DNA of 64,000 nucleotides from positions 32,001 through 96,000 of the IMG/VR virus record IMGVR_UViG_3300021255_001366. One strand, 5' to 3'. The DNA is from a virus. Taxonomy: Duplodnaviria; Caudoviricetes. This document shows, piece by piece, positions 1,788 through 41,602 of the stretch. The translations under genes were made by a program, and so were the position numbers. How positions within the stretch are numbered: the stretch's first letter is position 1; every line of letters starts with the position of its first letter. The notes under the pieces are model-generated. The model was not told the DNA's origin. It worked only from the letters and a program-made list of their open reading frames with translations, and did not search any database.

Positions 1788-1811
1788 ACAAAAAAATAGG
1801 AGGCGGTGCTT

Positions 1812-3629: not shown

Positions 3630-3659
3630 TTCGTTTTCCTCCTTTGTTATTTAATTTGG

Positions 3660-4061
3660 TTACGCACAGACGTAGGCAACTGTGTATGTTTGATTAGCCG
3701 CAGGAGTGAAGCCCGAATTAGTAATCAAAAACTTATATCTTGAATTGTTCACTATCGTAAACACCACTCTATCAACCGCCACTCCTTCAACCCAAGCGTT
3801 CATAATTTTAACTTGGCTTGTTGTTAAGGTTGTTGTTAAAATACCGTTGCTGTCGGTAGTACCCGAAAAGGTTGGAAACTTAATCAACTCCTCTACATCA
3901 CTCATATGAGCAAAAGGGTCAATTTCTTCCACATCGTCCGATGCAATCGTCTCACCGATAAACAGTTCTCCGTGAAGTGGATTCCCATTCACATCAAACA
4001 CATGAGATGTGTCCGTCTTTATGGGTTTGCTATTTCCTTGTTCGTCTTGTATTACTGCCAT
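3660..4061 (-). CDS. Putative tail fibre/appendage protein
   Basis: AGGAGG RBS; TDTSHVFDVNGNPL motif; beta-rich C-terminus. Confidence 0.55.
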   Translation of the reverse strand: MAVIQDEQGNSKPIKTDTSHVFDVNGNPLHGELFIGETIASDDVEEIDPFAHMSDVEELIKFPTFSGTTDSNGILTTTLTTSQVKIMNAWVEGVAVDRVVFTIVNNSRYKFLITNSGFTPAANQTYTVAYVCA

Positions 4062-4097
4062 GATTTTCCTCCTTTGTAAAATGTGGATTTAACTGAG

Positions 4098-6343: not shown

Positions 6344-7600
6344 CTATTCGGTTCTCTTGTGTCTCTTTTCCCATGCCACAACTTGTGGCGAATGTATTTC
6401 ATGATTAGCACCATCAAACTCAAGAGTCTTGCAATATTCGAGCATTTCATCGTAAGACATCTTGAATAATTCTGCGATAGTACCATCGGGATCATTGATA
6501 TAATCATAGAAATTACCTATCCAACTTTCACAAAATCTCACATCTGAGTAATGTTTCACTTGATAAAGCATATCTTCAATGTCAGAATACACAATTTCAT
6601 CCCAATATTTGTCCTTCAAACGCTGTCGAAGACGTTTGACATTATCTCTTAACGAGTACCAATCCTCCTCAAGAGGCTCATAATCCGTACTTGCAACCTC
6701 TTTTAAAAAGTCCAAGAAGTTATAAAATGCATAAATTGACATGTTCAAGTACTCATGTTTCATGAATTCGTCCTCTTGATCCTCGAAATTATACTTCTTA
6801 TTGAAATCATCAAAGAAATCTAGGATTGAATTACTGCTTGCCATAGTCCATCCGGACAAATGTTGACCATAATGTGGATCTTTTCTTGACAAAGAATCCT
6901 CATTTGGAAACCAAAATGCGGTTGCTTGACAGTCAGTTTCATGAGTATCATACGGAATTTTAACCGTGATATAGTCGTCAGTATGTGCGATAGCATAGTC
7001 TAACTTGCGAATAAACGGATAATCCTCTCCTTGACGGGAGTTTAAGCCTGTCAAAAAGTGAATATCGTACTCCTCAATGAACTTTCTATTAAAGCATCTC
7101 GACTGCACCCATATGCTATGACCAGGAATGTTATGTTCATAACCTCCGGTGTCGAAAGAATAGAGTAGTCCATGGATACACGCAATAGGTTTTGCATCCT
7201 CATGAGATGCGTTATCATTAATGATGTGCAAAAATCTATCACATGCATTTGGTGCGAGCATGTCATCACAATCTACAAGTAGAAAATAATCGTAATCACC
7301 GTGTTTCCATCCGATTTCACGAGATTCGCCTTGATATTTGTGATCTTCATTGCATATGATAGAAATTTTGATGTGTTCAGTGTCATATGACGACTTAAAC
7401 TCGTCTGAAAAATAATAAGAATACGCAGAACCCCCGTCATTACTACGTCCTTCGAGGTAGTCATCTACCAATATAAGATGTATTTTATACGGGTTCTTTT
7501 TGCTTATAAATTGATGTATTACCGAATATACCATTCTATCCGTTTTACTTCGATCCCCCCACATGGGGGAGACTACGGTAATTCCTTCTTCTTTCTTCAT
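6344..7600 (-). CDS. GT2 (GT-A fold) glycosyltransferase
   Basis: ITVVSPMW, LILVDD, FLLVDCDD (DxD) and GED motifs. Confidence 0.85.
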   Translation of the reverse strand: MKKEEGITVVSPMWGDRSKTDRMVYSVIHQFISKKNPYKIHLILVDDYLEGRSNDGGSAYSYYFSDEFKSSYDTEHIKISIICNEDHKYQGESREIGWKHGDYDYFLLVDCDDMLAPNACDRFLHIINDNASHEDAKPIACIHGLLYSFDTGGYEHNIPGHSIWVQSRCFNRKFIEEYDIHFLTGLNSRQGEDYPFIRKLDYAIAHTDDYITVKIPYDTHETDCQATAFWFPNEDSLSRKDPHYGQHLSGWTMASSNSILDFFDDFNKKYNFEDQEDEFMKHEYLNMSIYAFYNFLDFLKEVASTDYEPLEEDWYSLRDNVKRLRQRLKDKYWDEIVYSDIEDMLYQVKHYSDVRFCESWIGNFYDYINDPDGTIAELFKMSYDEMLEYCKTLEFDGANHEIHSPQVVAWEKRHKRTE

Positions 7601-7619
7601 TCCTTTTACCTCATCCTTT

Positions 7620-8570
7620 TTATCCTTCTGTGCTTGTAGTTATAATTGTTTCTGTCTTAACACTCTTGTATAGATACCTTGTTTGATAAATTGACTCATT
7701 AGTAGTAGTAGTAGATGACGTAAACCACTTAGAAGACGTTGAGGTGGATGTTGTAATTGAACAAGATGTATAATAAGGATCGGTTGTCATAGGAATAATC
7801 GATGATGTTTTCTCTTGTTGTGTACAATGTACAATATCGACGTTTGGCGCACCGTTCTTATAATAATATACATTAGTCATTGCTTCGATAATATACGGGT
7901 TAACGGTAGACGTCCCAGTTTGTGTGATTGAATATCGCATAGCACCAACTCCTGCATTAATGGTTGTATTATTGACAAGCAATATGTGCGACACCGTTTC
8001 TCCTATTCCATCAGTATTAGCATAATTCCATCTTAAAGACATTGTATGTATTGTCGTAGCCGTATAATATGCGTATGATTTTTCTGCATAAACACTGGTT
8101 TGTGTAAATATACCAACAGATGTTTTTCCAGGAGTATCAAATATATCCATAGTTCCATTACTACTTGAATACGAATAAGTTCTTGTAATATTTATTAGTG
8201 CAGATCCATTAAAAGAATATGAGTTATTTTTTTGAGTTGTTCCTAACGTCAACGTCGTAGACACAAATGCCCATGTATGTGTGTAATCTCTACCACCATA
8301 AACAAGTCCATTAAAACTACTACTTGATTTTCCTTCAATTCCATATGAAGACCTTACATGTGTTGTTGTATTAACAGTCGTAGTTACCGTCTGCACCGGA
8401 ATATACGTCTGACCACTCTTTGTCACTTCAAGCCTTAATCCAGTAGTCGTATTCGTTGTTAAGTCCAAATATGAATTAGACACCTTTAAATATGGTTGTC
8501 CCGTATGTGTTTCCTTACATTTGTACGATTTTGTCGTACCGTCTTTGTTTAAAACTAAATAAGTCGGCAT
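7620..8570 (-). CDS. Thr/Ser-rich hypothetical protein, probably virion-associated
   Basis: Long T/S runs; GGAGG RBS; lies in the fibre cluster. Confidence 0.6.
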   Translation of the reverse strand: MPTYLVLNKDGTTKSYKCKETHTGQPYLKVSNSYLDLTTNTTTGLRLEVTKSGQTYIPVQTVTTTVNTTTHVRSSYGIEGKSSSSFNGLVYGGRDYTHTWAFVSTTLTLGTTQKNNSYSFNGSALINITRTYSYSSSNGTMDIFDTPGKTSVGIFTQTSVYAEKSYAYYTATTIHTMSLRWNYANTDGIGETVSHILLVNNTTINAGVGAMRYSITQTGTSTVNPYIIEAMTNVYYYKNGAPNVDIVHCTQQEKTSSIIPMTTDPYYTSCSITTSTSTSSKWFTSSTTTTNESIYQTRYLYKSVKTETIITTSTEG

Positions 8571-18224: not shown

Positions 18225-21200
18225 TTAAAATCTATTTTTCATTAGACTATTATGACCAGTTGCTTGACCAAATGTAATCTCTTGAATGAAACTACTAAAT
18301 TGACCATCTTTCTTCATAGCCTCCTTAAACTGCTCATAGTTCTTAACATTCGGGAGGTTAATAGAAATAGCGTTTTGGTTGTTAATGGTATTACCATTAC
18401 CATTACCGTGAGGTATGATAGACTGAATGTCTTTAGCCGTAGGAACATCTGTCTTGGAGAGTTCCCACAACCTTTGAGCCATTTCATTGGTAAATACCAT
18501 ATCGCCAGAACCAAGAGGTGTTAACATTGCTCCATCTCCCGTACGGTAGATAAGCTCTTGTCCTTTCTCCTGAGTCCATGCTAACTGGTCGTGAGGAATC
18601 TTCTTAGATCCCTTCGCAAACTTATTGTAATGGTACGGACTAAGGTCACGGATACCGTGGTATCTTCCTACCCAAGCACCGCTATAAATATAACCTTCTC
18701 GTCCCATTTGGTTAACGATGTTCTGCACCTTATCAGCGTCGAATCCTTTTTGTCTCAAGCGGTTAAAGCGGTCTTGTCCGGAACCCCACCCGTAATTGCC
18801 ATTCCATATAGCAAGAGCAACACCATAATAATCCTTTTCAGAACGCTTAGGTGTTTGAGCTGCCTTAGCGGCGGCTTGCTTCTTAGCTGCGGCTTGTTGC
18901 TTAGCCTTCTCTGCTTCAGCAGCTTTCTGTTTAGCGGCGGCCTCAGCCCTAGCTTTTGCTTCTTGCTCTGCTTTGATTTGTTGTGCTTTCTTAATCGCAG
19001 CCTGACGTTCAGCTTCAACTTGTGCCTTGCCAGCGTCCGTCATACTGTATACGTAAGCCTTGATTTGGTCTATAGATGCCTTAACGGCAGTAGAATTCGT
19101 GTCGAACTTATTCATGAAGTCGGATACGAGAGTAGATATCTTATTGCTATTCAAGATGTCATTCAAAGGCTTTGTAATAGTATACGCAACCTTATCGGTT
19201 TCAACCTTAATAGTATCCTTAATAATGGCGGTATTCTCATTAGCGTTATCAATCATGTCATGCATAAGAGCATCAACATCATCAAGTCTTGCCATGAGTA
19301 CCTCTTCATACTCTTGTCGCATCTTAGAGATGAGTTCCTTAGTCTCGGAAATCATCTTTTCCCATTCGGTCTCTTCAAGTTCTTCACGAGCTTCATTTAA
19401 GTTGTTCTGCGTCTGCTGAATTGTCTTACGTGCCTCTTCAGAGTCATCCCCAGCATAGGCATTAAGCATCTTCTCCATGGAATTGATATTCTTGACTTGT
19501 TGCTCGATGTTCTTCGAGTAGTCATACATGTCTTTCTCTCTGTCCATAACCTCTTGATATTTATCAATCAGTTTATCGAGGTTCGACAAGTGTTCTTGGA
19601 TTCCCTTCTCTACAAGGTCTTTAACGGCATCCTTCATCTGCTCTGCTGATTTAATTGCATTCTGCTGAGCATCAACGAGCTGTTCATACCTCTCAATTAA
19701 GGACTTATTTCCAGGATCTTTCGCAATTTCTTTTTCAAGTTTACGACGCTCCTCAGCGTAATCCAATGCTTGACGCATAGCGGTTTCATATTGTACCGCA
19801 AACAATCCATTGGTTGCTTGACCACGATTAGTCAACCGTCCATCGTCCTCATAGAGTTTGTCGTTAGACATTAAATCTACAAGGAATTGTGCTTCACTTG
19901 TAATACGTGAAATGCGGCCTTCAATCCAGTCAAAGATTTCCCAATCAAGATTTCTTATTTCGTTATTAAACTTAACGAGAGCAGTAGTAGATTCCTCGAT
20001 AGCTTTCTCAACAGAAAGAATCTCTTGGTTCATAGAATTCCAAGCCGATGACCCCTTCTCTATAGCCCCACTAGCAACTGCTTCGTCACGTTTCTTTATT
20101 AATTCTTGATACTCTTGTGTAAGGTATCCAAGTTCCTCGTTTTCGTACTTAATGAGTTCCTTGTAATAATCCTTACTTACAAAGTATCCATGTTCTTGCG
20201 TTCTACTAATGCGCTCATCTATGATGTCTGCATATGAAGTAGCATACGCAATTAACTCTTCAAATTCGGATTTGATATTGTCGAACTTTGTTTCTGCGAG
20301 TTCACCAAGTTTAATGGTTAATGTTTGAACTGCATCATAACATTCAACAGCCTTATTAAACCACTGCTGATACAGATTGATTTTTTCAACAAGTGGTTCA
20401 TTGTTTTTAATTGTTTCAATATCAATCAAACCATTCCGAACTTTATATGCATACTCTTCGGACAAACCTACAGAGTTAGCTTCTTGTAAATATCTTTCAT
20501 AACCTCGTCGTTGGATATCAATTTCTTCGCGTACTCGATCCATCTCAGAGATAAGACTCTTGTTGCGCTTTGACCACAGCGTATATGTGTTCTCGGCAAC
20601 CTCATTAAGCCTTGCTATTTCTTCCTCGATGCGCTGAATCTTAACCTCAATCCAATCGAATGTTTCTTTAGCTTCGTCGGCACTCTGATCATCGCGACCG
20701 CCACCTGAATTTCCAGAACCACCAGGACTAGGAACATTAAATCTATCTCTCCAAGAAGATGATCCAGCACGACCTCCGGTACCAGCACCGTGATATTGTG
20801 TTCCACTAGCAAATGAACCCATCAACTGACCACGAGAGTTAATCTTATGACTTGACAATAACTGCCTTGTCTGTTCAGCGTTAAAAATGATATCGCCTTT
20901 GACAACTGGAATTACTTCCGCACCATTAGAACCGATAGGGTAAACTTTCCCATCACGAACAAGTAACTCTTCGCCAAGCTCGCCTACGAGAGACATACCG
21001 CTTTGTTGAACGTTAGAATTACCATATGCACTACCAATCCAAGAACTACCATGTTGAGGATTAGCTTTCGTTCCATTTGTTGTTACACGAATATTAAACG
21101 GTTGATTATTAAGAGAGCTTTGAATGCTTTGACGCAAAGAAATTATAGCGCCTGGAGCAAGATTCAATTGAGTCTTTACAGTCGCATGTGTATTATTTAT

Positions 21201-24200
21201 TGCGGTAACTAAAACATTAACATCTTTTTTTGCTTGTGTGGTATCTGCTCCAACTTCGACATCACCATTCTTAACAAAATCATTAACATCAATACTGTCA
21301 GTTTTTTCTTTAATTGATGCAACTATTCCACCAGCAGAAGCAGTATCCCAATTAATACCACTCAAACCAAGAGTAGATTTGTTCTCAATGCCTTGAAGGT
21401 CTTTCATTAAAGCGCTAAGTTTTTCTTCTGCGGCATCAGCTTCAGAAGAATCAATCTTCATCTCTCGGTTATACTCTACTTCGTTATATGTTTCGATAAA
21501 TTCTTGAACTAGTGAAATATCTTCAGAAAGAGTACCCTCGACATCACTAGCGTCAACATCCATAATTGTTGGACGTTCAAGTTCTTGCTTCTGACGCAAT
21601 AACGCAGCCATAGCAGTAGATGCTTGTTGCCATTCTTCCGTATCCGGCGTTAATGTATCTCTATATTCAGATATCTGTTCAAAATCGCCAAGAAGAGTAT
21701 CAATATCTTTAGAATCAAAATGAATTTTAAAAGGAGCAGAGATTTTTTTAGACACTGCCTTTTGAATATCTTCAGCATACGACTCTGCTTCTGTAACTAA
21801 TTCATCTCTAGATTTTTCAGACAATCTTAGTTCAAAATCAATACCTTGATTAAGTCTACGTTCTGTAGCATACAACTCTTCTTCAAGACTGCTTACATCG
21901 TATCCGGCCGCCTTTAATTCTTCAATAGACTTCTTGTAATCGTCCATCTTCTGACGTGCATCAACACTTTCGTCAGATATAGCAGTTAATCCGTCAACAA
22001 TGCTGTCAGAGATATTGTCAAAGTCTATATCAAAATCCCAAGCATCACTAGTAGCAAGCAAGAGATCAGTAGCAGCAGATACGCTCAAGTCCATACGTTT
22101 AGCGAATTCATCAATATTTTTTACATTAATCGCATAAACACCTTCGGCATCTTTAGTAATCATACCTTCGGTTTTTTCGACGGCATCATCTAAGAAATTA
22201 TAGATACCAGATATGTCTTCAGTAAAATATCTTTGACCACGCTCAATATATTCTTCGACCTTGTCAGCCCAATTCTCATCATAAACATCACTACCAAATT
22301 CCATGATGTCTGGATTGAATCCATAACCACCAAGATACTCCATGCCCTTGCGGAATTCATCTGTACCAGTCCAACCGGACTCAAATGACTTCTTAAGGTT
22401 TTCTACAGCAGAAGCAGCAGTATTAAAGTTATCAGACAAGTTGGGAGTCTCTGTTGCCTTAACGTATTCGTTAAGAGCAGACATCGTAGCACGGATTTGT
22501 GCCTCAAGCATATCATAACCATTGATTTCATCAGCTAATGCTTGTGATTTATCAAGGCTTGCTATCAATTCAGAACGCTCTGCATCTGTTAAATCCTTAG
22601 TAACATTAACATAATCACGAAGAGTTTGCTTACCTTGTGCACGAGCATTTTTGAGACGCTGAGTTTTACTGGTAAGTCTGTCTATGGTTTTGATTTCTTC
22701 GTTGTATTCTTTGACAGCAACAGCTTCTTTAAGTTCTGCACTAACAAGTGTCGCTTCGGCTACTTGCTCTGTATACTTCTGCATTGCTTCAGTATTGAGC
22801 ATAACTCCGTTGTCAGTAAACGTATATAATGATTCTTGTAAATCACCATAGGTTTGATTTAACTTTTGAAGTGTTTCATCTGTTAAATAACCCTGGTCTT
22901 TCTGTTCAGAAAGAGCAGTAGTAAGAGACTCGAACATAGCAGTGTTAAACGAGAGTTTTCCACGAGCCGAATTGTATGCTAAATCATCAATAAACGAATT
23001 CCACGCAGCAGTACCCTTCTTGAGAAGTTCTTCATCAATCTCTCCATTGTTAAGAGCGGCCACCCAAAGGTCGTAGCGATCGTCAGATAGGGTATTAATG
23101 AATCGCTCATACTCTTGTCTTAGTTTGCGTCCGTTATAATCCGCAGTCTGATTTCGCCTATCTGTTGTTACAGAGTCATCTAAAGTCCACGCATTTAATG
23201 CCTTATCTCTGCTTGTCATGAAGCCATCAACTTGAGCAAGTTCCATTAGTTTATCAATTGGAACATTCGGAAGAAGTTTTTGCAATATCTCTAATTGCTC
23301 ATTAATATCCGCTACACGATCAGCATAACTTACACCTTTCGCATTTTGAACTCTATTAATCTCATTTAAAATGTCTACGACTTGATCAGTATCTTGTTTA
23401 GATAATTGTTCGAATTGTTCGTTGATATCTTTAATTGCTTGACTTTGTTTTCCAACTGCGCCAAGTTCATCAGGTAATGCTCCATAATCATAGGTATCAA
23501 GCATTCTCTTATATAATTCTTGCTCTTTACCAGACAAAGAATTATAAAACTCATTTGCTTCTGTGGCATAAAACCGAGACATATACGTTCCAGCTTCTTG
23601 ATTAAAATTATGAAGCTGAGTAGTGTGCATTGTTAAATTTGTTCTAAATTCAGTCTCAACTTGCTTGAGTTCTTTTTCTAACCATGCTGATTGCTCCGCA
23701 GTAAGATGTTCATAATCAACACTGCCGTATATATTTTCAAGATGCCCGGTTAATTTTGATATATCTAGGAATTTGTACGAATCACCGCTTTCATCAAGTC
23801 GCCCAGATCGAATATCGGAAATAACCTTATTCAAGCTATCCATCTTTTCTTGGTATTCGTCAACCTTATCTTGAGCATCTTCGACATTAAGCATTGCTCC
23901 AGAGAATAAATCTTCAAATTGACTTGCAAATTCTGCATTGGCAATATCTTGACTCTTTTGAAGTAATTCGTCTAACGACCCAACAATAGTTCCAACAGTA
24001 CCATTAAGGTTAAGAAGCGCATTGCCATTTTCATCATATCCGTTTGTTAATTCAGGGAATATTTCTGCAAGCTGATTACTGATGTTTAAGAATTCAGCGT
24101 ACTCATCATTTGACAAAGTACCTTGGTTTTGTTGTGATGTACCAAGATTATTAACTTCTTGTGCAAGCTCAGCATAACGTTGTTTTACATTGTTTACCGT

Positions 24201-24695
24201 ATCAGAGTTTTGCTTCATAGAAGAATCAACATCATCAACAGCATCTTTGGCTTTTTTGTAATTCTCCCGGATGTATTTCTCAGGATGAAAAGCCTTATCT
24301 AATTGATCAAATAGAAAACCTACTCCAAATGTTACAGCAGCAGAAATTCCTCCAGCTATTAGACTGGTACCAATGTTCGTAATTAATCCAGTAAAGAAAT
24401 CCTTAAACTTAACGCCCATTTGACCAAGAACAGTATAGTTCTTTTGCATAGTCTTAACCATGGAAGCACCGTCGCCAATAGCATTGTTTAACTTAAGTTG
24501 GTCTTTTGCGGCGCCAATAATACGAGCATCAACGTTGTCGTACGCTTTTGCCATTTCGTCCAAGTCGGCGTCTTCAGCAACATCCTCTTCCTTCAACATC
24601 TTCAAGAAATCAGCATTGCCTTTTTCTTGTAATAATCCCTCAAAATATTTCTTAGATTTAAATATAGGCGTTTTATTCTCTGTATTTCCAAACAG
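18225..24695 (-). CDS. Tape measure protein, exon 3 (includes a CW_7-like repeat)
   Basis: No RBS; begins CTG TTT GGA right after the intron terminal G; coiled coil; LVGELGEEL and WTQEKGQE motifs. Confidence 0.85.
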   Translation of the reverse strand: MFGNTENKTPIFKSKKYFEGLLQEKGNADFLKMLKEEDVAEDADLDEMAKAYDNVDARIIGAAKDQLKLNNAIGDGASMVKTMQKNYTVLGQMGVKFKDFFTGLITNIGTSLIAGGISAAVTFGVGFLFDQLDKAFHPEKYIRENYKKAKDAVDDVDSSMKQNSDTVNNVKQRYAELAQEVNNLGTSQQNQGTLSNDEYAEFLNISNQLAEIFPELTNGYDENGNALLNLNGTVGTIVGSLDELLQKSQDIANAEFASQFEDLFSGAMLNVEDAQDKVDEYQEKMDSLNKVISDIRSGRLDESGDSYKFLDISKLTGHLENIYGSVDYEHLTAEQSAWLEKELKQVETEFRTNLTMHTTQLHNFNQEAGTYMSRFYATEANEFYNSLSGKEQELYKRMLDTYDYGALPDELGAVGKQSQAIKDINEQFEQLSKQDTDQVVDILNEINRVQNAKGVSYADRVADINEQLEILQKLLPNVPIDKLMELAQVDGFMTSRDKALNAWTLDDSVTTDRRNQTADYNGRKLRQEYERFINTLSDDRYDLWVAALNNGEIDEELLKKGTAAWNSFIDDLAYNSARGKLSFNTAMFESLTTALSEQKDQGYLTDETLQKLNQTYGDLQESLYTFTDNGVMLNTEAMQKYTEQVAEATLVSAELKEAVAVKEYNEEIKTIDRLTSKTQRLKNARAQGKQTLRDYVNVTKDLTDAERSELIASLDKSQALADEINGYDMLEAQIRATMSALNEYVKATETPNLSDNFNTAASAVENLKKSFESGWTGTDEFRKGMEYLGGYGFNPDIMEFGSDVYDENWADKVEEYIERGQRYFTEDISGIYNFLDDAVEKTEGMITKDAEGVYAINVKNIDEFAKRMDLSVSAATDLLLATSDAWDFDIDFDNISDSIVDGLTAISDESVDARQKMDDYKKSIEELKAAGYDVSSLEEELYATERRLNQGIDFELRLSEKSRDELVTEAESYAEDIQKAVSKKISAPFKIHFDSKDIDTLLGDFEQISEYRDTLTPDTEEWQQASTAMAALLRQKQELERPTIMDVDASDVEGTLSEDISLVQEFIETYNEVEYNREMKIDSSEADAAEEKLSALMKDLQGIENKSTLGLSGINWDTASAGGIVASIKEKTDSIDVNDFVKNGDVEVGADTTQAKKDVNVLVTAINNTHATVKTQLNLAPGAIISLRQSIQSSLNNQPFNIRVTTNGTKANPQHGSSWIGSAYGNSNVQQSGMSLVGELGEELLVRDGKVYPIGSNGAEVIPVVKGDIIFNAEQTRQLLSSHKINSRGQLMGSFASGTQYHGAGTGGRAGSSSWRDRFNVPSPGGSGNSGGGRDDQSADEAKETFDWIEVKIQRIEEEIARLNEVAENTYTLWSKRNKSLISEMDRVREEIDIQRRGYERYLQEANSVGLSEEYAYKVRNGLIDIETIKNNEPLVEKINLYQQWFNKAVECYDAVQTLTIKLGELAETKFDNIKSEFEELIAYATSYADIIDERISRTQEHGYFVSKDYYKELIKYENEELGYLTQEYQELIKKRDEAVASGAIEKGSSAWNSMNQEILSVEKAIEESTTALVKFNNEIRNLDWEIFDWIEGRISRITSEAQFLVDLMSNDKLYEDDGRLTNRGQATNGLFAVQYETAMRQALDYAEERRKLEKEIAKDPGNKSLIERYEQLVDAQQNAIKSAEQMKDAVKDLVEKGIQEHLSNLDKLIDKYQEVMDREKDMYDYSKNIEQQVKNINSMEKMLNAYAGDDSEEARKTIQQTQNNLNEAREELEETEWEKMISETKELISKMRQEYEEVLMARLDDVDALMHDMIDNANENTAIIKDTIKVETDKVAYTITKPLNDILNSNKISTLVSDFMNKFDTNSTAVKASIDQIKAYVYSMTDAGKAQVEAERQAAIKKAQQIKAEQEAKARAEAAAKQKAAEAEKAKQQAAAKKQAAAKAAQTPKRSEKDYYGVALAIWNGNYGWGSGQDRFNRLRQKGFDADKVQNIVNQMGREGYIYSGAWVGRYHGIRDLSPYHYNKFAKGSKKIPHDQLAWTQEKGQELIYRTGDGAMLTPLGSGDMVFTNEMAQRLWELSKTDVPTAKDIQSIIPHGNGNGNTINNQNAISINLPNVKNYEQFKEAMKKDGQFSSFIQEITFGQATGHNSLMKNRF

Positions 24696-24704
24696 CAAAA
24701 CTAA

Positions 24705-24733
24705 TTGAATATATGTCTATATGGTGTTAATAT
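24705..24733 (+). promoter_or_regulatory. sigmaA-like promoter of the intron-nested gene
   Basis: TTGAAT-17 nt-TAATAT with extended -10 TG. Confidence 0.55.
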
Positions 24734-24752
24734 TATATTAAGGAGGTGGATT

Positions 24753-25262
24753 ATGATGGAAGATAACGCAATAGTAGTATACTGCGATATGTGTAGGAAA
24801 AAAGAAACTAGTAACAATTTACACATTAAACGTATTGTCGCATTCAGAGAATACGACGATTTTAATGGCACATGTCCACGATGTGGTAATCAAAACTGTA
24901 AAATACTTCACTTGACACAGAGCGAGATTTCACCAATTTATGTTCATGCTGAGTGTGCGGGGCAAGACGAAGAGTATTTGATTAACAAAGTTTTCGAATT
25001 CGATGAACTCAAAAGAAATAATCCTGAGGAATTCGATAAGCTATGGCAACCATTAGAAGAATTTAGAATCAAAGAACTAGAACGCAGAAAAAATTCAAGA
25101 AGTAAAAATGATTCTAATTCGCCCAAATGCCCCACATGTGGAAGTACCAACGTCAAAAAAATCTCCGGAGGTAAGCGTTGGCTTGGAGTTGGATTATTTG
25201 GTCTTGCATCATCTAATATTGGCAAAACATATGAGTGTAAGAATTGCCAATACAAGTGGTAA
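24753..25262 (+). CDS. Double Zn-ribbon protein with Gly-rich hydrophobic segment, antisense inside intron 2
   Basis: AGGAGG RBS; CDMC/CPRC and CPTC/CKNC pairs; WLGVGLFGLAS. Confidence 0.85.
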   Translation: MMEDNAIVVYCDMCRKKETSNNLHIKRIVAFREYDDFNGTCPRCGNQNCKILHLTQSEISPIYVHAECAGQDEEYLINKVFEFDELKRNNPEEFDKLWQPLEEFRIKELERRKNSRSKNDSNSPKCPTCGSTNVKKISGGKRWLGVGLFGLASSNIGKTYECKNCQYKW

Positions 25263-25265
25263 TAC

Positions 25266-25294
25266 TTGACATCCACATCAGAAAGTACTACGAT
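25266..25294 (+). promoter_or_regulatory. Near-consensus sigmaA promoter
   Basis: TTGACA-17 nt-TACGAT. Confidence 0.65.
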
Positions 25295-25330
25295 ACAGAT
25301 GCCATACAATACGCCAAATCGCGTATTTGA

Positions 25331-25356
25331 GGAGGCGGGAGACCGTCTCCTTTTTT
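25331..25356 (+). terminator. Intrinsic terminator of the nested cassette
   Basis: GGAGGCGG-GAGA-CCGTCTCC-TTTTTT. Confidence 0.85.
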
Positions 25357-25787
25357 GACTTTTTATAGGATTCTCAGTCCTATTGTTTCGACTCTACCTT
25401 CATGCCTTTCGACACGCCCACTTGGGAGCCTGTGGGGGCGATTCTTGATAACTTGCCAAATCTGTCTTACTAACATCGAATTTTGATATTAATGTGTCAG
25501 ATTTGTCTAGTTATTAGACCATCTCCCTGCTGATTGAGTTATTGGGTAGTTTGCTTGCGCAAGTGAGAACCAATAACCTTTCCAGTCCTTGTAGGAGTCT
25601 CACGAACATCCTAGGGTCGGTAGTCACACCGATCCATATCAGTGGTACGAGAGGGACGAATGAAATATGTCCCATAAAAGTCTCGTTTGATTTTACTTGT
25701 ACACCCTACACCTTGCGGTGGTCTTTGTGTTTTACCTACGGTTGGTTAGCCGTAGCACGGGCGTGTACCTGAGCCTATTTGGATATA

Positions 25788-26358
25788 ACCCAGCTTTGAA
25801 AATTTGTTTGATAATACAAAAGTTCCGATTCCGGCAATTAGTGTTTTTAATGTGCCGAAAGAAGATATAAGGTCATTAACAATGCCTAAGATATTATTGC
25901 CAGTATCTATGAGTCCTTTTAAAAATCCAGAGTCTAATACTCCGGTAGCAAGTTCCTCTAGCGAAGCTTTGAGTCTATTTGTTGAATATTCAAGACCTTG
26001 TTCGAAATTGGCTTGTTCGCGCATTGCACTACCAGCAGAATTCTCTGCGGTGTTATATGCAGCTTCAAGAGTCTCGATATTATCAAGCACGGCGTAAAGA
26101 GCGTTTGCATTTCTTTTACCAGCTAATGCTTCTCCAAGAGATGCACGTTCAATGTCATCAAGATTCTTCCATTCTTTACCAATACCTATAAGGATATCAT
26201 AGATTGACTTAAATGTTTTCTGATCCGCTTCTAATATATCGAACCCGGTTAAACTCTTAACCAATCCCTGAAGTTTAGAAGTTGTTTCTGTAAACTCGTC
26301 AGTCTCTTCTCCGAGGTCTTCTAATTCTGTTGATGCACCACGTATGCGAGCACTTAAT
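25788..26358 (-). CDS. Tape measure protein, exon 2
   Basis: LSARIRGA...FKSIYDIL...LAGKRNAN...NSAGSA; continues exon 1 and exon 3 in frame. Confidence 0.88.
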
Positions 26359-26965
26359 CGTTTGTATTAACATTGTTCGCAACACAATGCTTTTATTATA
26401 TTAATTATATGTGATTAATTAAAAAACGTTCCATATTGTCATACTCCCAATACGGAACGCAAAAAGGTATTCTTTCTCAGGAGTATGCTGAGTAGAATAC
26501 TCTTTGTCGTATTTTTTCATAATAATATAATAAAACTCATAGTTTCCCATGAGACTAGACTATTTCTTCATCCTCTCTACAAAATAGAGTAGGAGTATAC
26601 CTTTTCGATTTAAGGGGATTTCACCCACGCCATTTGCGATTGCGCCCTACGATTATTGTTATGGATATTCAGGATTTCCACCCTTATTCTCTTGTCCATA
26701 ACTCGACGTGAATCTAGTCGTTGAACCTTTACCCTCGACTCAAGCACCGGATGGTCTCCGGAATACGTTAGGGTACTTGGCTGCAAGAACTACCATTTGC
26801 CTTCGCCAGTACTTAGGTTTTTGACCATATACCATCCTTACGTTGTTTCTACTTTCGTACCATCATAGCGTGATTTCTCCGCTATTGTGGTGTAAGGCTT
26901 TAGGTTTTACCTGCAATTAAATATATTCCATATGCACATTACTGTACATAAAGACATAAAAGTTT
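26359..26965 (-). mobile_element. Group I intron 1 of the tape measure gene (607 nt, no ORF, IA-like)
   Basis: P TAATTGCAGG (26919-26910), Q CTTGCAGCCAAG (26787-26776), R GGTTCAACGACTAG (26727-26714), S AAGAAATAGTC (26568-26558), P9 with GAAA loop, terminal G; splicing restores FKTLSARIRG. Confidence 0.9.
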
Positions 26966-29900
26966 GTCTTGAAAACAGTTCCTACTTGTTCAGGATTTTG
27001 TACAACAGTGTTGGCGGCTGTGACGAGCGCTACAGATTCCTCAAGTGAAGTGTTTGCAGCATTTAAAGAAGCAGCTGAACGCTGTAATGCCTCACCAATT
27101 CCAGCACTATCAATTGCATAATTATTCGCAACTTCATTGAATACGTCTACAATATGCTCTGCTTGATCTGCTTGCATTTGATAACCTTGAAGCGTTGAAA
27201 TCAAACTTTCGTTTGCAGTTCCAATATCAATACCGTCTCCAACATTTTTATACAAAAGTGCAACACGAGCCAGCTCTTTAGCATCAGGAACAGAATACCC
27301 AAGTCTAGACCAATCTGCTGTTGCGCTTATTGTGTCAGAAATAGTAGCACCAAGATCCTTTGCGGTATTTGCATAAGCTTCAAAATCATTTTGTATTTGA
27401 CTAAGAGTTTGCCCTGATACCTTGGATAATTCGACCATCTGTTTGTTGATATCTGCAACATATGTATACCCTTGGCGTACAACTCTAATAACATCATAAA
27501 AACTATTAAATGTAGTAAGAGTCGCAATCATGGACTTTGCACGTTGCTTAATCATGTTGAATACAGACGATCCAGTCTGACCAGCTTTATATGCATTTGA
27601 CTGGATAGTTTGAATCTGGAGGATAATCCCATCCAATTCCTCTCTTGTTAAAGTCGCACTACTACGCAGCTTCTCAGAGATTTCGTCAAACTGAGTTCCA
27701 TATGTACTTTCTGCGGCTGAGTTTTGTCTACGCCATTTTTGAAGATCCTTTTCTATACGAAGCTGTTCCTTGTAGCGTTTATCTTCAGCAGCTTCTAGTT
27801 TTTTCTGGTCATTAACGTTCTTTTGATTGTTTTTAGCGACAATTTTGCCCAGCTCATTTTGTGCACGTTCATTTTCTTTTATTACATCAGTAGACTTTTC
27901 ATACTCGACATTAAGCTGACGCATAGATTGTAATTGTTCTTCGTACATTTTTGCACGACTAACAGCATCTCGTTCTAATTCTTGTTCTCCAGATAACTGA
28001 TACTTCTTCACTTCAATCATTGCGTTATTGTATTGCTTTAAAGTATCAACATATTTTTTCAATGCTTGCTTGTCTTGTTTTTCTGAAGAATCAGATTGCG
28101 CCAATCCACCATTTGATTTATCAAGCTTACGTGCCTCAATAACGGCTATTTCTTGCAAATTCTTTTTGCGCATCTCTAATAATGTATTAACTTGCGCCTC
28201 TGCGTTTGCATTTTCATCTATAGCCTTGAGTTCTTTTGTTTTTTCTTGATATACAGCTAAAGCAGTTTTCTTTTGTGCTTCTAGTTCTGTTATTTCAGCA
28301 GTATTTTTTACAGGATCTAGTTTCGCAATTTGCTTTCGAATATTAAGAACATCTTGGTATGCCGTCTTTTGCTCAGATAACAGATTATTAACATTAGATA
28401 CTTGAAGACCTTCCTCTGCTTTCTTCTTTGCTTCAGAATTCTGCCTCATTTGCTTATACAGATTCTGACGTTCTTTCTCAATTCTTAATTTTTCTCTTTC
28501 AGCCGCAAGGTCGGTTGATTTATAATCATCAGATTCAGCTACGCTTGTGTAGGCAACCCCGCCCTTTTTATCATATTTGATATTTAATCGTTGTGTTTGT
28601 TTTACTAATTTTCCACTCGAATCTTCAACCATGCGCTCTGCTTTAATTAACGCTTGAGCTAAATCATCGTGAGAATCATAGAATCTTTCAATACTAGCAA
28701 TATATCCATCAACTTCATATGAACTTATTTCTGCTATAATAGCATTTTCTATTTCTCTTGTTCGTATTTTGGCTTGTTCCGGATCATACTTGTCATCATA
28801 CGGGACTTTAGTTTTGCTTTGTTTTTTCTTTGCTGATTCAACCTTAGAAGATTGCATATCAGAAACAATGTTGTTCAATGGAGTTTTAAGGTCTTTGTAC
28901 CAATTTCCATATTCTCCATTATTCAACTTTGTTGCTTCTTCTTGTACTTCTTTAGCAGTAAGAGTTCCAGCGTTTACCAGTTCACGAACGGCATCCTCAA
29001 CTTCACCTTTATGCTTTTTAATACCTTTCGCATAACCCTCGCCCCACATTTCTCCAAGCGCCTCGGCTACCCTAGAAGGAGAGCGTGAGTCTTGTGCTTC
29101 GGCAGTACCTTCGTTTGCTGCATTAGCTAAATCAGCACCAGCTTGTTTGGCATTTGGTTGTTCGGATTCCATTCCTTCGACATATGATTTTCCTTGCTTT
29201 TTACCGTTAGATGAATCTGGAGTTTCATTGGATATTTGAGGAAGGTCAGGAAGTTCAACTTTATATTTATTAAATAATTCCTTTATATAACTTTCAACTG
29301 TATCCTGTATGTTGTTAAAAGCTTTAACAAAATCATCATCATCTAAACTACCTATTTCTCCTCTGACATTAGTCATTGCTTGCTTAATAAAGTCTTCTTC
29401 AGAGATTTGTTTATCCAAAGCTTCGCGAATAGTATAATCCATTGCTTCAGCAACAGCATCATAATACTTTCCTGTTATTTCAAAATACTGGCGTTCTGCA
29501 TCTGATGACATAGAAAACGGTGAAAAATTTGAACTGTCTACTTCAGAACCAATAAGTTTAGAGTAAGAATCGGCAAGAAATGTTGAAAGATAGTGTGCGG
29601 ATTGACTTTTCATCATCATTGAATTATGATTTAAGCCATAACTACCAGTTGACCTTATCATAAACTTCTCGAACTTTAAAACAGAAGAAACTTGTTCATA
29701 AGTAGAATCAATATGTTCTTTTAAAAACAATAATATTTTTTTAAACTCTTCAATTTTATTATTGATTGCTTCATCATTATTAACATTTAATTCTCTAAAT
29801 TTACCAAAATCATTCAGTATTTTAATAAGATTATCAATATTATTTTGCTCATTTTTAAGAGTATCAATTATATTAGTGTCAACTTTACCACCTTTAGACG

Positions 29901-32900
29901 TAACAATTGATTGAACCAAGCCATTTGAAAGACTATTATATAAATCAGATAATGGAATAGGAATTTCTCCATTTTCATTTTCTAATTCGAGACCAGCAAT
30001 ATGCGAAATATTTACAAGGGACTTTACTACACTAGCAATAAGACTGTTTTTTACATTAGACAAATCTATATTCAAAGTTTTGCCTTGCCACATTAGTTCG
30101 AACTGCTTACCTATTCCTTGAGACAAAAATTTATCAAACCACGTTAAATAATCATCTTCTGATAAAGTACCACCTAAAGGTGAAATAGAAGAGTGCTTAT
30201 GAAATATTTTTGCGGCATTAGTTGTATTCATTTCATCAGGTAAATTCATCCTATCTAATTTACCTATAAATGAATCTATGACTTTTCCAGTTTCATCAAA
30301 AATAGCAAAACGTTCTTCTAATGAATTATCATTTTTAACTTTCTTTATAAATTCTTCATAAGATAAGCCTATATCAGAAATAACTCTTTTAGTTCCTTGA
30401 CCTAACTCTTCATATTTATCTTGAGTTTCTTTTATTTCTGATTGTAAACGGTCTTGTTGTTCTTCGATTCCCGATGAAAGATTATTTTTATTACTAAACG
30501 GTTGTTCAACTTCCTTTAAATTTGCCTTATAATTCTCAAGCGTTTCCTTGAATAAAGCCGTAGCCTTTTGTACTCCAAGACGTTTCTTCTCAACGCCTTC
30601 CATAACGTTGTCAAAAATCTTTTGGAGTTCGCCGTCGGAAACTTCTCCGAAATCAATAAGCCCCTTATCTTTTTCCACCTTAATGGCATCAAGGATTTTC
30701 TCTCGTTTTGATTTAACATTTTGATTATTGGCTTGAGCAGAGGTATTCTCGTTTACTTTTTTTGTTTCTTCTTCGACCTTTGCTATATCTTCTTGCTTAA
30801 CAACTGGGGTGTTTGCGTTGTCTTGTTTAGCTTTCTTGTTTGCATCAACAGCAGAAGTAAGCCGCTCATACTCGGCTTGTAAACGTTGTTGTAATTTTGT
30901 ATTATCTGTTAAATCAGTTATAGACCGAGAACCACCCTGTTCTTTATATTCACTATATTGCTTAATTATATTAGCAAGGTTGCCCTTACCTTTGCTCGTA
31001 CGTTGATCAAAACTATTCTTGTCAACAAACGAAAGCATTTTATTAAAAGATTTTTCTAAATCTTTTGTATTCTCTTGTATGCCGTCGGTAACACCTTCCG
31101 AAATACTCTTGCCAACATCTTTTGACGCTTCCTTAATTGGTTCACTTGCTTGTTTTACTATATCACCCATAGAAACAACACCATTTTGAAGCTCTTGTTT
31201 TGCTTCTTCCATGGATTGTTTTACGGCTGGAGCAATACGCTCAAACTCCTCATTAATTTTCTTTATAATGACCTTTTTCCATCCAGGACTCTCGTTAGAC
31301 GCATTAGTCTGATCAAAGATAGTCTTAAGAATACTTGTTTCTCCAGTATTCATATATGCTTTGCTTAATTCTAAAATATTGTTCGCAAATCTAGCAGACG
31401 ATTCATTAATAATCGAACCATCTTTTTTTGTCTTAATCTTCGATTTATCAACAAGTGATCCTGTAATATTTTTTAAAAAATTTTTTTCGCTTGCATCAAC
31501 TTTTTCAGGGATAAAGTTAAAGTATTGTTCTGCTTTTTTTAACTCTGCATTAAGTTCAGCGACATGATCTTTTTGTTTTCTCGTTTTAGACGCTATTTGT
31601 TCTGCTGGTTTAGATGCGTCTTTAGCACCTTGTATTAAGTTTTTATAGGCATCATATTCGCTTTTAATCTCATCTGCGTTTTTACTAGATTGAATAAAAT
31701 TCTTCTTTTGTTCGTTGTATATTAATCCGTTTGCATTTAATGTTTCTTCTAATTCTTTCTTACGAATCTCAGATTCTTCTTTTAAAACCTTAACGGTTTC
31801 ATCATTGCTTTTAATATACTCTTTTTGATATTTTGAGATTAATTTAATGGTTTCAAGATATTCGTTTTTAAGTTTTTGAATAGCAGTAATATTATTATTT
31901 ACTTCTTGTGTATTATCTTCTAATGCAACAGTATCATTTTTAATATCACTCTGTGCGTTATTACTTTCAGAAGAAATAGAAGTAGTTGTTTTCGGTTTAT
32001 TTTTTTTCTTAGTATTTGTGTTTTCAACAGTTGTTGTTGATTGCATATTACCAACATCTACAACAATCGCATTTTCAGCCAATGCTTGTTGCAGTGTTTC
32101 AACAAAACCATTAACACTTGAAATCAACGGAACAACTGGCACCTTTACTGGCTCATTTATTTGACCTTCAATTTCTGATATAAAAGTTGAAGGATCAATT
32201 TTGCCATCAATCTTAACTTTAATTGATTTAATATTCTTAATTTCTGCTTCTATTCTAGAGAGAATATTTGCAACACCAGAATCAGTTACATTTGAAAATA
32301 TAGCTTGAATCTGATTAAGATTCAATCTTATTATTTTAGTTTGTTCAACAACATTATTAATAGCATTTATTAATGGATCAAATGTGCCACTAAACGCCTT
32401 GTTATTATCTGCTAATACGGTTTGTAAATCTTTTAAAGCATTCGTAAATGTAATAAGAAGATTAACATCTTTTTCATCCGGAGTTTCATTTTTCTTATTT
32501 TTCTTTGTATCAACTTTTGTTATTTCCAAAGAATCTAATAATGTTTGAAGAGGAGTAATCTTAGTAGATATTTCTTCCAAACCTTTTGTAAAAGCAGAAG
32601 CCCAACTTTGAACTTTTTTGTCATCAAGCATAACATTAACTTCTTTGGCAAGTGTAGCCAATGAGTCTGTTATATTTAAACTAAATTCCTTTGTCAGCGC
32701 CTCAAGCTTCGCTTTTATCTTGTCTCCTTCTTCTTGAGAAATATCAAATTCAGGATAAAATTTAAAATGTTGTTCTTTAAGAGTTTGTTGTATTTGATTT
32801 ATATTCTCTGTTATTCTTTGTTTTGTTTCTGGAAGATTGGTTTTGATATTTAAAACAGCGGCCTTGTCAAATTGCGAACGCATTTTTTGAAACAAATCAC

Positions 32901-34083
32901 TATAATCATTTTTTAATTGTGGATCATCTATTTTTACGATTTGCGCTTGAATGTTTTTTAACGCCTTATTTAATTCTCCTTGTTCCGCCTTAGTTCCTTT
33001 AAATGCACCAAATCTTACTTGCACTTCAACTGGATGTTGCCCAGAATAAGAATTTAAATCATCAACAAGTCTAATGATATCTGGTTTTAATTTATCAATC
33101 GATGCTTCATCTAAAAGTACCGGAATCCTAATTCCACCATCTTTAAATTGAAATGTTGTAACCATTTGTTCTGCGGTTTGCCCAAGACCTTTCAATGTTT
33201 CAACCATTTCAGATCTCGTTTCCGCAAGGCTTTTATTAATTGGGCTACTAATATCTTTTAAATGTTCTAACTCACCTGCAATCGAACTAAGATAAAACGT
33301 CTTCCCGCCTCTAGAAAAATGCATTTTAGAATCTGCAAAAGAATTTTCACCATTTAATTGAACCAATCTTTTTGAAAGTTGTTCAACTTCAACTGCTGTA
33401 TCTACAATTCGCTTCTGCATATTACGAAGCGCAATAGGATCTTTTTGTGTGCCAAGCCTACTTTGAAGTTTTTCTAATTTTTCATATGCATCAACAAGAT
33501 TATCTTTTAATTCTTTAACATTATTTGATTTAATATTGTTTTTATTATTATCTATATTTATCTTATTAAAACTTTTAATTACTTTGTCTAATTCTTCTAA
33601 TTCTTTTGTTTCTTTTTTTACATCAATTAATTCTTTGAATTCTTTAAAAGAGTCCATAGAAGACTTGGTTTCTTTTTTAAATGAATTTAATTTATTATTA
33701 ACGTTTTCTATTTTTTTTACTATCTGATCATTTTGCTGCCTACTATTTAAAGATTGATTAAACTTTGCAATATCTTGTTCAGCCCCAGAAAGCCTTACTC
33801 GGAATTCATCCATTGTAGATTCAAATTTTTTTTGAAATCCATCAAACTGAGATGTGTCTATTTTCGAATTTGCAAAATTCTTCAAAGTATTTGAATACTC
33901 ACCTTGCAAGTCTTGAAGACATTTAATTATAGTATTTAAATCATTAACATAATTACCGCCAATACTAATATTGTCTCCAATTTTTTGTATTCCGCCTAAT
34001 TCTTTCTGTATATTTTTTATTTGATCACTTATATCTGCTATATGTGGTTCAACATTAAGAACCCATTTTATATTATTACTCAT
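26966..34083 (-). CDS. Tape measure protein, exon 1
   Basis: Long coiled coil; SPSR motif; TP901-type core (ADWSRLGY, DVFNEVANNYAI, ALQRSAA) near its 3' end. Confidence 0.9.
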
Positions 34084-40570: not shown

Positions 40571-41602
40571 TTATAAATCCCCCAAAGATTTCTGTTCAAC
40601 GTTTTTAATTCCGTTCTCGTCAAAATACTTACCAATATTTTCATCAGCAGATATATCTGTGTACAAATTCACCATGTCAGCAGACTCCCAGTTCACGATA
40701 TCTTGAATAACATTTGTTGGGATATTATTCTTTGCTAACATAGTGGTAAAGTAATGTCTCATAGAGTGCCAGTAAAAATCCTTACCAAGAAATCTAGTAA
40801 AACTATCTTTCCATCCATCAAGAGTCTCAGCGGCTATTGGTTGCGTCGCGTCGTCTTTACTAGGAAACAACCATTCACTCTCAATACCATTGTCTTTTCT
40901 ATACTTCATCCATAAGTCAAGATACGGTTGAAATTGTTTCTTAAGAACATATACTTGAATTCTCTTACCTTGCGATCCACGTCCTTTTGTCTGGATTTTC
41001 TCCGGCGTCTTCCATAAAGAACCAAACAATACATTCTCATCATTAAAATATGAAACCTTAAATCTAGGCAGTTCAGCCTTACGTCTACCAGAATACATTG
41101 CAAGTGCAAGACAACACGCTTGACGATACTTTTCTTTTTCTACAAGATAATCAAGCAACGCCTGTAGCTCGTCATCTTCAAACACAGTCTTTTCCCGCAC
41201 CGCAACGTTTACAGGAGACTCAATCTTTTTAATAACACTTCTATAACCTTCGTACTCTTCTTCTTCATCAAGAATGTTCTCAATATAATTCGAGAGAGAA
41301 GAAATAACAGACTTTACCCTACGAACACGCTTTGGACTCCATCCCCATTCATTAATTGCATGATTTTGAAATCTTGCAAATTCACGCTTCGTAATCTCCG
41401 TAAATCTCTTATTATCATTGTGTTCAAGGTTATACACAAAGAATATCTTTAAATCAGACTCATACTGACTAATTGTATTTGGTGATCTATCAATAGATTT
41501 CAAATAATCAAGAAAATCTTTTGTTAACTCCTTATTTTCAGGAAGAACCTTAGAAAGAGATTCTTCGCTTGTAATATTATTGTAAACAGTCGATCTTCCC
41601 AT
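40571..41602 (-). CDS. Second tyrosine recombinase (SPbeta YomM-like position)
   Basis: SGRRKAEL, HSMRH, W and Y catalytic positions; SAM-like N-terminus. Confidence 0.88.
   Translation of the reverse strand: MGRSTVYNNITSEESLSKVLPENKELTKDFLDYLKSIDRSPNTISQYESDLKIFFVYNLEHNDNKRFTEITKREFARFQNHAINEWGWSPKRVRRVKSVISSLSNYIENILDEEEEYEGYRSVIKKIESPVNVAVREKTVFEDDELQALLDYLVEKEKYRQACCLALAMYSGRRKAELPRFKVSYFNDENVLFGSLWKTPEKIQTKGRGSQGKRIQVYVLKKQFQPYLDLWMKYRKDNGIESEWLFPSKDDATQPIAAETLDGWKDSFTRFLGKDFYWHSMRHYFTTMLAKNNIPTNVIQDIVNWESADMVNLYTDISADENIGKYFDENGIKNVEQKSLGDL

Follow-up and report, generated by a model that had tools for sequence, protein, structure and literature searches.

The stretch of DNA analysed here (the window) comprises 64,000 nucleotides (nt), bases 32001-96000 of the IMG/VR record IMGVR_UViG_3300021255_001366, which is itself 123,919 bp long with direct terminal repeats and belongs to a siphophage of gut Clostridia with a genome of about 124 kb. 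The tape-measure gene (TMP) of this phage contains, in our reading, a functional group I intron of an atypical kind (intron 2), and within this intron, on the opposite strand, lies an independent and conserved gene for a zinc-ribbon protein that is not a homing endonuclease. We would give this reading as a whole a probability of about 70%. The features are collected in Table 1, and strands are marked (+) and (-) throughout.

That the TMP is one interrupted gene follows from its pieces. Three long ORFs (open reading frames) on the minus strand (26917..34083, 25746..26264 and 18225..24698) are colinear pieces of a single TMP, matching the PHROG TMP profile phrog_4211 at 526-777, 807-952 and 1031-1226, respectively, and the Pfam domain PhageMin_Tail is broken mid-domain by the end of the first of them. 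In Brevibacillus phage Sundance one coding sequence without any interruption encodes the whole TMP, to which exon 2 of the window aligns at residues 901-1089 and exon 3 from residue 1092. Upstream of exon 3 no ribosome-binding site (RBS) is seen in the sequence. The first gap in the gene holds another intron, intron 1, which is described further below; the second gap is intron 2.

The boundaries of intron 2 can be read from its pairing with both exons. Exon 2 ends in AAG CUG GGU, the last 6 nt of which (25793-25788) form the 5' strand of P1; the 5' splice site falls after U25788 (AAG CUG GGU/UAUAUCC, with the slash marking the site), and exon 3 begins CUG UUU GGA at 24695. In P1, CUGGGU (25793-25788) pairs with GCUCAG (25774-25769) over 6 bp, of which the pair at the cleavage site is U.G, and in P10, UCCAAAUAG (25783-25775) pairs with CUGUUUGGA (24695-24687) over 9 bp. 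An in-frame UAA stop stands 14 codons into the intron, while joining exons 2 and 3 restores the frame (...FSKLG/LFGNTENK), with AAGCUGGGU/CUGUUUGGA as the predicted junction. The initial annotation had placed the intron at 25787..24696 with exactly such a 6-bp P1 and 9-bp P10, and its coordinates proved to be exact. It had also proposed a P9.0 pairing (GAAAC/GUUUU); this pairing is possible in the window, but inspection by eye did not find it conserved in relatives.

Comparison with related phages adds considerably to these pairings. One relative, L003, has an exon 2 that is 75% identical, lacks intron 1, and carries at the same codon a homologous intervening sequence of 1082 nt with an antisense ORF. 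A profile built from the window and L003 retrieved the same core, antisense to and beside the homologous ORF, in more IMG/VR phages, and the fetching of longer stretches gave 12 intron members, which fall into three subtypes; homologous introns stand at the same TMP site in L003, L005, L013, L085-L089, L096, L101 and L105. In 9 of 9 relatives there is a unique splice site at which the last intron base is G, the bases just 5' of the P1 guide pair over 8-10 bp with the exon, and an open frame is restored; in one of them the intron lies in codon phase 1, and the frame is still restored. P1 occurs in relatives as CUGAGU/GCUCAG and CUGGAU/GUUCAG, position -2 being changed on both sides. P10 shows changes on both sides as well, namely AUUAAGUAG/CUAUUUAAU, AUUAAAUAG/CUAUUUAAU, UAAUUUACAA/UUGUAAAUUA and UGUGCAAG/CUUGCACA.

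The ribozyme core was assigned by hand, and the assignment was put to a test of covariation in an alignment of 11 sequences covering P2 with its two inner hairpins, the P2.1-like hairpin, P3, two extra hairpins (Ha and Hb) and P4 to P8, with P3 and P7 treated as a pseudoknot. Standard pairs occupy 89.4% of the cells, a share that drops to 34-45% if the 3' partners are displaced by 1-3 columns, and 44 of the 67 pairs show changes on both sides. None of 500 shuffles matched the observed values on four of five measures, and 6 of 500 did so on the fifth. P3, for example, is CCACU/AGUGG, CGCUU/AAGCG or CCUCU/AGAGG, and P7 keeps an invariant G-C beside its bulged nucleotide while C-G, G-C and U-A all occur as the outer pair. 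J4/5 is rich in A, reading AAA in the window and varying among relatives. Apart from a few substitutions, J8/7 (AAGGUA) is conserved, and elements resembling P, Q, R and S follow one another in canonical order. Indeed the whole core has the canonical order P3-P4-P5-P6-P7-P3'-P8-P7' with the P3/P7 pseudoknot, and it includes what appears to be a guanosine-binding P7. Ha and Hb, which occupy the interval between P3 and P4, co-vary too. Two other assignments were considered and rejected: a P7 at GACUC (25594-25590) accompanied by P7.1/P7.2, since that segment is the co-varying 3' strand of Hb, and, on the same ground, a P3 of the form CCUAC/GUGGG. The group I core had at first been drawn from 25787 to 25385; covariation backs it, but P9 reaches 25365, slightly beyond that limit. 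In our opinion intron 2 is thereby identified as a group I intron of an atypical lineage as firmly as comparison of sequences allows, that is, short of proof at the RNA level.

The antisense cassette lies on the plus strand between P9 (end at 25365) and the 3' splice site. Strong RBSs precede the ORF in all relatives examined. An ATG start could be read in seven relatives, where it lies within the intron at 51-70 nt from the 3' splice site; in the window this distance is 57 nt. Predicted promoters occur at equivalent positions in 8 relatives, such as TTTACT-16-TGnTATAAT, TTGCTT-17-TATAAT and TTGTAT-17-TATAAT, and the extended -10 promoters of relatives score 9-10/12 at this place. The bases of the intrinsic terminator form, on the intron strand, a hairpin just 3' of P9, and L003 has a hairpin and T run at the equivalent place. 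A complete cassette with a sigmaA-like promoter had been proposed at the outset. Its AGGAGG RBS, its 169-aa ORF and its terminator were indeed found, whereas the promoter is weak in the window and better in the relatives. As a separate observation, a second promoter-like site, TTGACA-17-TACGAT (10/12), lies at 25266-25294 (+), 4 nt past the stop of the ORF and upstream of the terminator; given that the number of such sites agrees with the expectation from shuffles, it may be due to chance.

The protein of 169 aa has a zinc ribbon at either end and is helical in between. The N-terminal ribbon has the form CxxC...CxxC, and the C-terminal one (CPTCGS...CKNC) is broken by a Gly-rich hydrophobic loop, RWLGVGLFGLASS. 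An AlphaFold2 model with a mean confidence (pLDDT) of 83 shows the N-terminal zinc ribbon, three helices and the C-terminal zinc ribbon, with the loop at 145-153 modelled at low confidence. Homologues number 87 in a set of 5.8 billion proteins, and there are 348 matching places in IMG/VR. Across 18 aligned members only the eight Cys residues and P127, T128, G130, S131, G150 and S153 are invariant, and the ratio of nonsynonymous to synonymous substitution rates (dN/dS) between the closer pairs of relatives is 0.07-0.47. From these comparisons, the antisense ORF is clearly under purifying selection at the protein level.

It is difficult to assign this protein to any known family. Pfam, PHROGs, NCBIfam and PADLOC gave sub-threshold zinc-ribbon matches only, Foldseek found no match in the PDB at E<=0.001, and the ESM Atlas together with Foldseek against PDB and BFVD returned generic zinc-ribbon similarity only. 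There is a weak match to Lar_restr_allev, which reaches the cut-off in L005 only. No nuclease family, motif or fold (LAGLIDADG, GIY-YIG, HNH, His-Cys box or PD-(D/E)xK) was found in it, and a reading of the protein as an HNH nuclease was rejected because there is no conserved His or Asn between the CxxC pairs. Hence the initial view that the ORF is antisense and is neither LAGLIDADG, GIY-YIG nor HNH agrees with the analyses of libraries, of folds and of invariant residues alike. In another family member, from L217, a true transmembrane helix takes the place of the C-terminal zinc ribbon, and this exchange hints that the hydrophobic C-terminal module may be a device for membrane association. 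We note also that in L217 (10418-10997, -) two tandem antisense ORFs abut exon 3, both of which combine a zinc ribbon at the N-terminus with a transmembrane helix at the C-terminus.

Is the zinc-ribbon gene an incidental passenger of the intron or its regular inhabitant? The relatives that bear on this question were collected with exon 2 proteins as the only seeds, in order to avoid selecting on the antisense ORF itself. Among the 26 relatives so found, 10 have a TMP that is uninterrupted at the site, and 16 are interrupted right after the homologue of exon 2. An antisense zinc-ribbon ORF with its start abutting exon 3 is present in 15 of the 15 interrupted relatives that could be evaluated, and this pattern spans gaps of 0.9-6.7 kb and ribozymes that sequence profiles do not link; single-sequence nhmmer, for instance, gave no link of the introns of L091, L099 and L103 to the ribozyme family of the window. 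In the minimal introns (window, L003, L005 and L013) the zinc-ribbon gene is the only ORF. Larger relatives have, between the ribozyme and the zinc-ribbon gene, variable genes on either strand, which occur sporadically: a sense-strand GmrSD_N/DUF262 protein of 330 aa (PADLOC NsnA, 1.3e-40), a PemK/MazF-like toxin gene of 204 aa in L085, and a second antisense ORF of 138 aa.

The initial annotation viewed the intron as a neutral landing pad for a moron that would be expressed in the lysogen, with a suggested role in superinfection exclusion, defence or toxicity, and it suggested comparing the cargo of related phages at the same position. That comparison did turn up different cargo, the GmrSD_N/NsnA-like and MazF-like genes, and the intron therefore does act as a container of accessory genes. 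The zinc-ribbon gene itself does not fit the proposal in that form: it is present in every interrupted relative that could be evaluated (15), irrespective of ribozyme lineage and other cargo, and is thus a constant resident and not an incidental moron. Judging from these relatives, the gene is fixed, and the space beside it is a swappable compartment. Family members outside TMP genes adjoin prophage integrases or a DUF4365 protein, a neighbourhood that would suit an accessory gene expressed from the prophage.

Some further observations concern the same site. The introns of L085, L086 and L087-L089 are 3.4-5.4 kb long and have the 330-aa GmrSD_N/DUF262 protein on the sense strand; in L085 the stretch concerned is 6738-8467. 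The gaps of L091, L103 and L099 hold unrelated sequences that are silent in Rfam. By eye, guide-like pairings of 10, 11 and about 16 bp can be seen in them between the 5' end of the gap and the first bases of exon 3, and the P1 pairing of L103 looks damaged (4/6). In the cargo region of the TMP gap of L100, at 3587-3660, there is a match to the RAGATH-18 RNA (71.9 bits).

Several points weigh against our reading and are better considered together. The Rfam model RF00028 gave no match for intron 2 when cmscan was applied to the whole window, to a 3-kb region at E<=10 or to the 471-nt core alone, and the TMP gaps of relatives are silent in Rfam too, except that of L114. The case for the intron therefore rests on comparative evidence. 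An Infernal search with group I models had been recommended early on; its outcome was this silence for intron 2 and a 54-bit match for the neighbouring intron 1, and blastn of the window against phage records likewise gave a match for intron 1 only. Further, a core with two hairpins between P3 and P4 cannot be placed in a described subgroup. Phage group I introns are typically of subgroup IA, which Michel and Westhof in 1990 reportedly defined by P7.1/P7.2 between P7 and P3'. These elements are absent from intron 2, where just 3 nt stand between P7 and P3' (GGCUC-CCA-AGUGG), and their absence, together with the two P3-P4 hairpins, probably explains why Rfam is silent. We regard that silence as a limit of the model, not a defect of the structure. 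The outer stem of P2 is poorly aligned, with 50% of cells paired, and hence adds little to the support from covariation.

The other points on this side concern the cassette. The promoter of the window scores 8/12, which is under the threshold of the scan, and promoter-like sites in the region are not commoner than in shuffles. No family, fold or defence model in the libraries named above gives the 169-aa protein a name. The divergence of the zinc-ribbon protein is not correlated with that of exon 2 (Spearman 0.13, a value reached in 335 of 2000 permutations), so that the history of the gene was not simple co-inheritance; this pattern fits exchange or fast evolution. Finally, the unvarying association of gene and intron is as compatible with a role in the persistence of the intron as with a benefit to the host.

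Taking both sides into account, we still prefer the explanation of an intron that works and a gene that is expressed on its own. The first 420 nt or so form the ribozyme core, and the guide pairs with the end of exon 2 (P1) and, across about 1.07 kb, with the start of exon 3 (P10). Given this pairing with both exons, splicing would restore one TMP frame (...SKLG/LFGNT...), and we infer that intron 2 is self-splicing. The antisense gene would be transcribable alone, with the late tail operon on or off, and would be removed from the TMP mRNA along with the intron. Relatives have further accessory genes inserted between the zinc-ribbon gene and the ribozyme. Expression of the antisense gene would then be independent of the tail genes, probably taking place in the prophage state or early in infection, and the gene would presumably benefit the phage. 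As for its role, a membrane-associated or nucleic-acid-binding accessory function, for example in exclusion or defence, seems to us the most likely one. A more far-reaching proposal is that the zinc-ribbon protein is the very reason why these introns persist. As a factor that binds nucleic acids or associates with the membrane, and that is produced separately from the tail operon, it would either exclude rival phages at the DNA-entry step that involves the TMP or provide a new, non-nuclease form of mobility or addiction, and the intron would be a dedicated 'gene safe' within an essential gene, into which entire defence and toxin modules were deposited later. We consider this rather unlikely.

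The alternative that deserves most attention holds that the zinc-ribbon protein serves the intron as a new, non-canonical factor for its mobility or maintenance, be it by binding DNA site-specifically and recruiting a nuclease, as a maturase-like RNA chaperone, or by addiction. Such a role would account for an ORF that adjoins the 3' splice site wherever an interrupted relative could be evaluated (15 of 15), across ribozyme lineages that could not be linked, and that is the sole ORF of the minimal introns; intron-less alleles exist as possible targets, and zinc ribbons commonly bind nucleic acids. On the contrary, the protein has neither a nuclease motif, family or fold nor any invariant His, Asp or Asn, and its ORF is antisense with a promoter-like site of its own, unlike the known mobility genes of phage introns. 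Family members also occur outside introns, beside integrases, and the larger introns carry a separate candidate nuclease, GmrSD_N/NsnA-like, on the sense strand. Altogether we find this role distinctly improbable.

A second alternative is that the cassette acts mainly as RNA, with antisense transcription tuning the splicing of the TMP or read-through in the late operon and with the protein being secondary. It gains something from the predicted promoter, which in all relatives lies 10-40 nt from the 3' splice site and points against the TMP transcript, and from the terminator hairpin, which doubles as a hairpin beside P9. Against an RNA-level role stand the clear purifying selection on the protein, the invariant Cys ligands and the strong RBSs in all relatives, and we think it very unlikely. 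Hardly credible, in our opinion, is the suggestion that there is no intron at all, but an intergenic island between two tail genes with coincidental pairings: the lack of an Rfam match and a possible TTG start of exon 3 at 24698 would suit it, but covariation across 11 sequences, two-sided changes in P10 with the frame restored in 9 of 9 relatives, the lack of an RBS before exon 3 and the existence of uninterrupted homologous TMPs all contradict it.

The proposed expression from a prophage presupposes lysogeny, which is plausible for the phage of the window, as judged from gene content, because the 124-kb genome has three tyrosine-recombinase (PF00589) genes and relatives are found inside chromosomes of Clostridia. 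Four of the relatives bear a provirus flag in IMG/VR, and members of the zinc-ribbon family occur in genomes of Lachnospiraceae, Oscillospiraceae and Ruminococcaceae. At least 25 of the 79 family members from bacterial genomes stand back to back with a long TMP-like ORF. One example of this arrangement is Coprococcus ammoniilyticus H1_22, whose ribozyme belongs to the family of intron 2 (E 4.5e-102); another is [Clostridium] asparagiforme DSM 15981.

Table 1. Coordinates of the features discussed; positions refer to the window unless given as genome positions
Feature	Position	Strand	Details
Group I intron 2 of the TMP gene	24696..25787	-	1092 nt; starts UAUAUCC, ends ...GUUUUG, terminal G at 24696
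TMP exon 2	25788..26366	-	upstream limit approximate, set by intron 1; phrog_4211 807-952
TMP exon 3	18225..24695	-	2156 aa + stop; first 9 nt CUGUUUGGA (24695-24687) = exon strand of P10; phrog_4211 1031-1226
Internal guide sequence	25769..25783	-	P10 strand UCCAAAUAG (25783-25775), directly followed by P1 strand GCUCAG (25774-25769)
Ribozyme core	25365..25768	-	structure assigned by hand; covariation for helices P2b to P8
P2 three-way junction	25768-25699	-	
P2.1-like hairpin	25685-25648	-	
P3	25645-25641 / 25422-25418	-	CCACU / AGUGG
Extra hairpins between P3 and P4	25632-25617 (Ha); 25613-25592 (Hb)	-	
P4 and P5	25585-25529	-	P4 CUGG/UCAG; J4/5 AAA
P6	25527-25521 / 25442-25436	-	plus long extension
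P7	25432-25426 / 25394-25389	-	C-A(bulge)-GGCUC / GAGUCG
P8	25416-25401	-	GAAA loop
P9	25383-25365	-	
Promoter-like site	24705..24733	+	TTGAAT 24705-24710, 17-nt spacer, TAATAT 24728-24733, TG just upstream; read from sequence
RBS AAGGAGG	24740-24746	+	AGGAGG 7 nt upstream of ATG
Antisense ORF	24753..25262	+	169 aa; four CxxC motifs; sole ORF of at least 150 aa in the intron of the window
Intrinsic terminator	25329..25362	+	GC-rich hairpin (25329-25352), then TTTTTTGACTTT T run; terminator scan
PF00589 gene	1806-3011	+	
PF00589 gene	40571-41602	-	
PF00589 gene	119577-120014 (genome)		

Intron 1, in the first gap of the TMP, is a canonical group I intron (RF00028, 54 bits, 26975-26536, -). Since the frame of exon 2 opens only near 26366, intron 1 must have a 3' extension of about 170 nt beyond P9. 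Intron 1 (26367-26975, -) resembles the lysK intron of Staphylococcus Kayvirus. In L005 there is an intron with a sense ORF of 320 aa at about the same TMP site (..RIRG..). In its 3' extension, at 26337-26433 (-), the Rfam motif Fusobacteriales-1 gives a weak match (26 bits, E 1.2) to intron 1, and a strong one (75.7 bits) is seen in L090 at 3935-4062, on the TMP-sense strand inside the TMP gap. Phage introns of this sort may carry the orphan motif as a peripheral domain.

Why does this arrangement deserve attention? Group I introns in structural genes of phages are usually regarded as selfish DNA that brings along a homing nuclease or nothing. In the window, by contrast, an essential tail gene appears to shelter a selected gene that is not a nuclease and whose expression is predicted to be independent, and the corresponding intron of relatives has room for up to about 4 kb more of accessory genes, of the defence and toxin types. 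Should the expression of the cassette be as predicted, such introns would be a previously unrecognised hotspot of accessory genes in gut phages. Standard annotation hides it, because Rfam does not detect the ribozyme and two or three separate ORFs are called in place of one TMP. The case also offers head-on antisense transcription across a splice site in a form that can be tested, with related prophages available in the two cultured strains named above, C. ammoniilyticus H1_22 and [C.] asparagiforme DSM 15981. We found no paper on a phage intron in which a self-promoted antisense gene other than a nuclease gene is constantly resident, and the systems that resemble it do so in part.

With respect to the host gene, the nearest parallels come from Bacillus cereus-group prophages, whose TMP genes hold the group I introns TMP-IVS1, IVS2 and IVS3 (Tourasse and Kolsto 2008, PMC2504315), and from Vibrio phage ICP1, which has a TMP intron with RNA evidence of splicing (PMC10448857). 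Like these, intron 2 would be an in-frame group I intron with an early in-frame stop and with P1 and P10 adapted to the exons, and in both cases different introns occupy the same site, intron content varying while the exons are constant. The B. cereus-group and ICP1 introns belong to IA1 or IA2, are detectable by models, and are either empty or occupied by a sense-strand HNH or GIY-YIG homing endonuclease, whereas the core in the window is silent in Rfam, has two extra hairpins between P3 and P4, and is accompanied by a constant antisense ORF that is not a nuclease and has a predicted promoter and terminator.

The IStrons CdISt1 and BcISt1, in which a group I ribozyme is joined at its 3' side to foreign genes (Tourasse et al. 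2014, PMC4227781), share with intron 2 a 5' ribozyme without a homing endonuclease gene, foreign coding DNA that extends up to the 3' splice site, and occurrence in Firmicutes and Clostridia, and in both the insertion would be made harmless. The cargo of IStrons is an IS200/IS605 or IS607 transposon, mobile to many sites; the element of the window is confined to one TMP site and has a zinc-ribbon gene, joined in relatives by defence-type genes. In the intron of the window no ORF matches a transposase family, the zinc-ribbon gene being the only one of at least 150 aa. A protein gene on the strand opposite to the ribozyme is known from the L2066 group I introns of nuclear rDNA, which carry antisense His-Cys box homing endonuclease genes (PMC9548176). 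These introns differ in residing in eukaryotic rDNA, in encoding a homing endonuclease and in being expressed by way of eukaryotic mRNA processing.

Finally, phage morons are accessory genes that lie between late genes and have a promoter and a terminator to themselves (PMC7067206). The cassette is similar to them as a predicted self-contained unit in the late structural region of a probably temperate phage, with genes of defence and toxin types at the same spot in relatives. Unlike a moron, the gene of the window lies inside another gene, where the intron would render it harmless, and it is fixed (15/15) rather than sporadic, while the extra cargo beside it in relatives is sporadic, as morons are.

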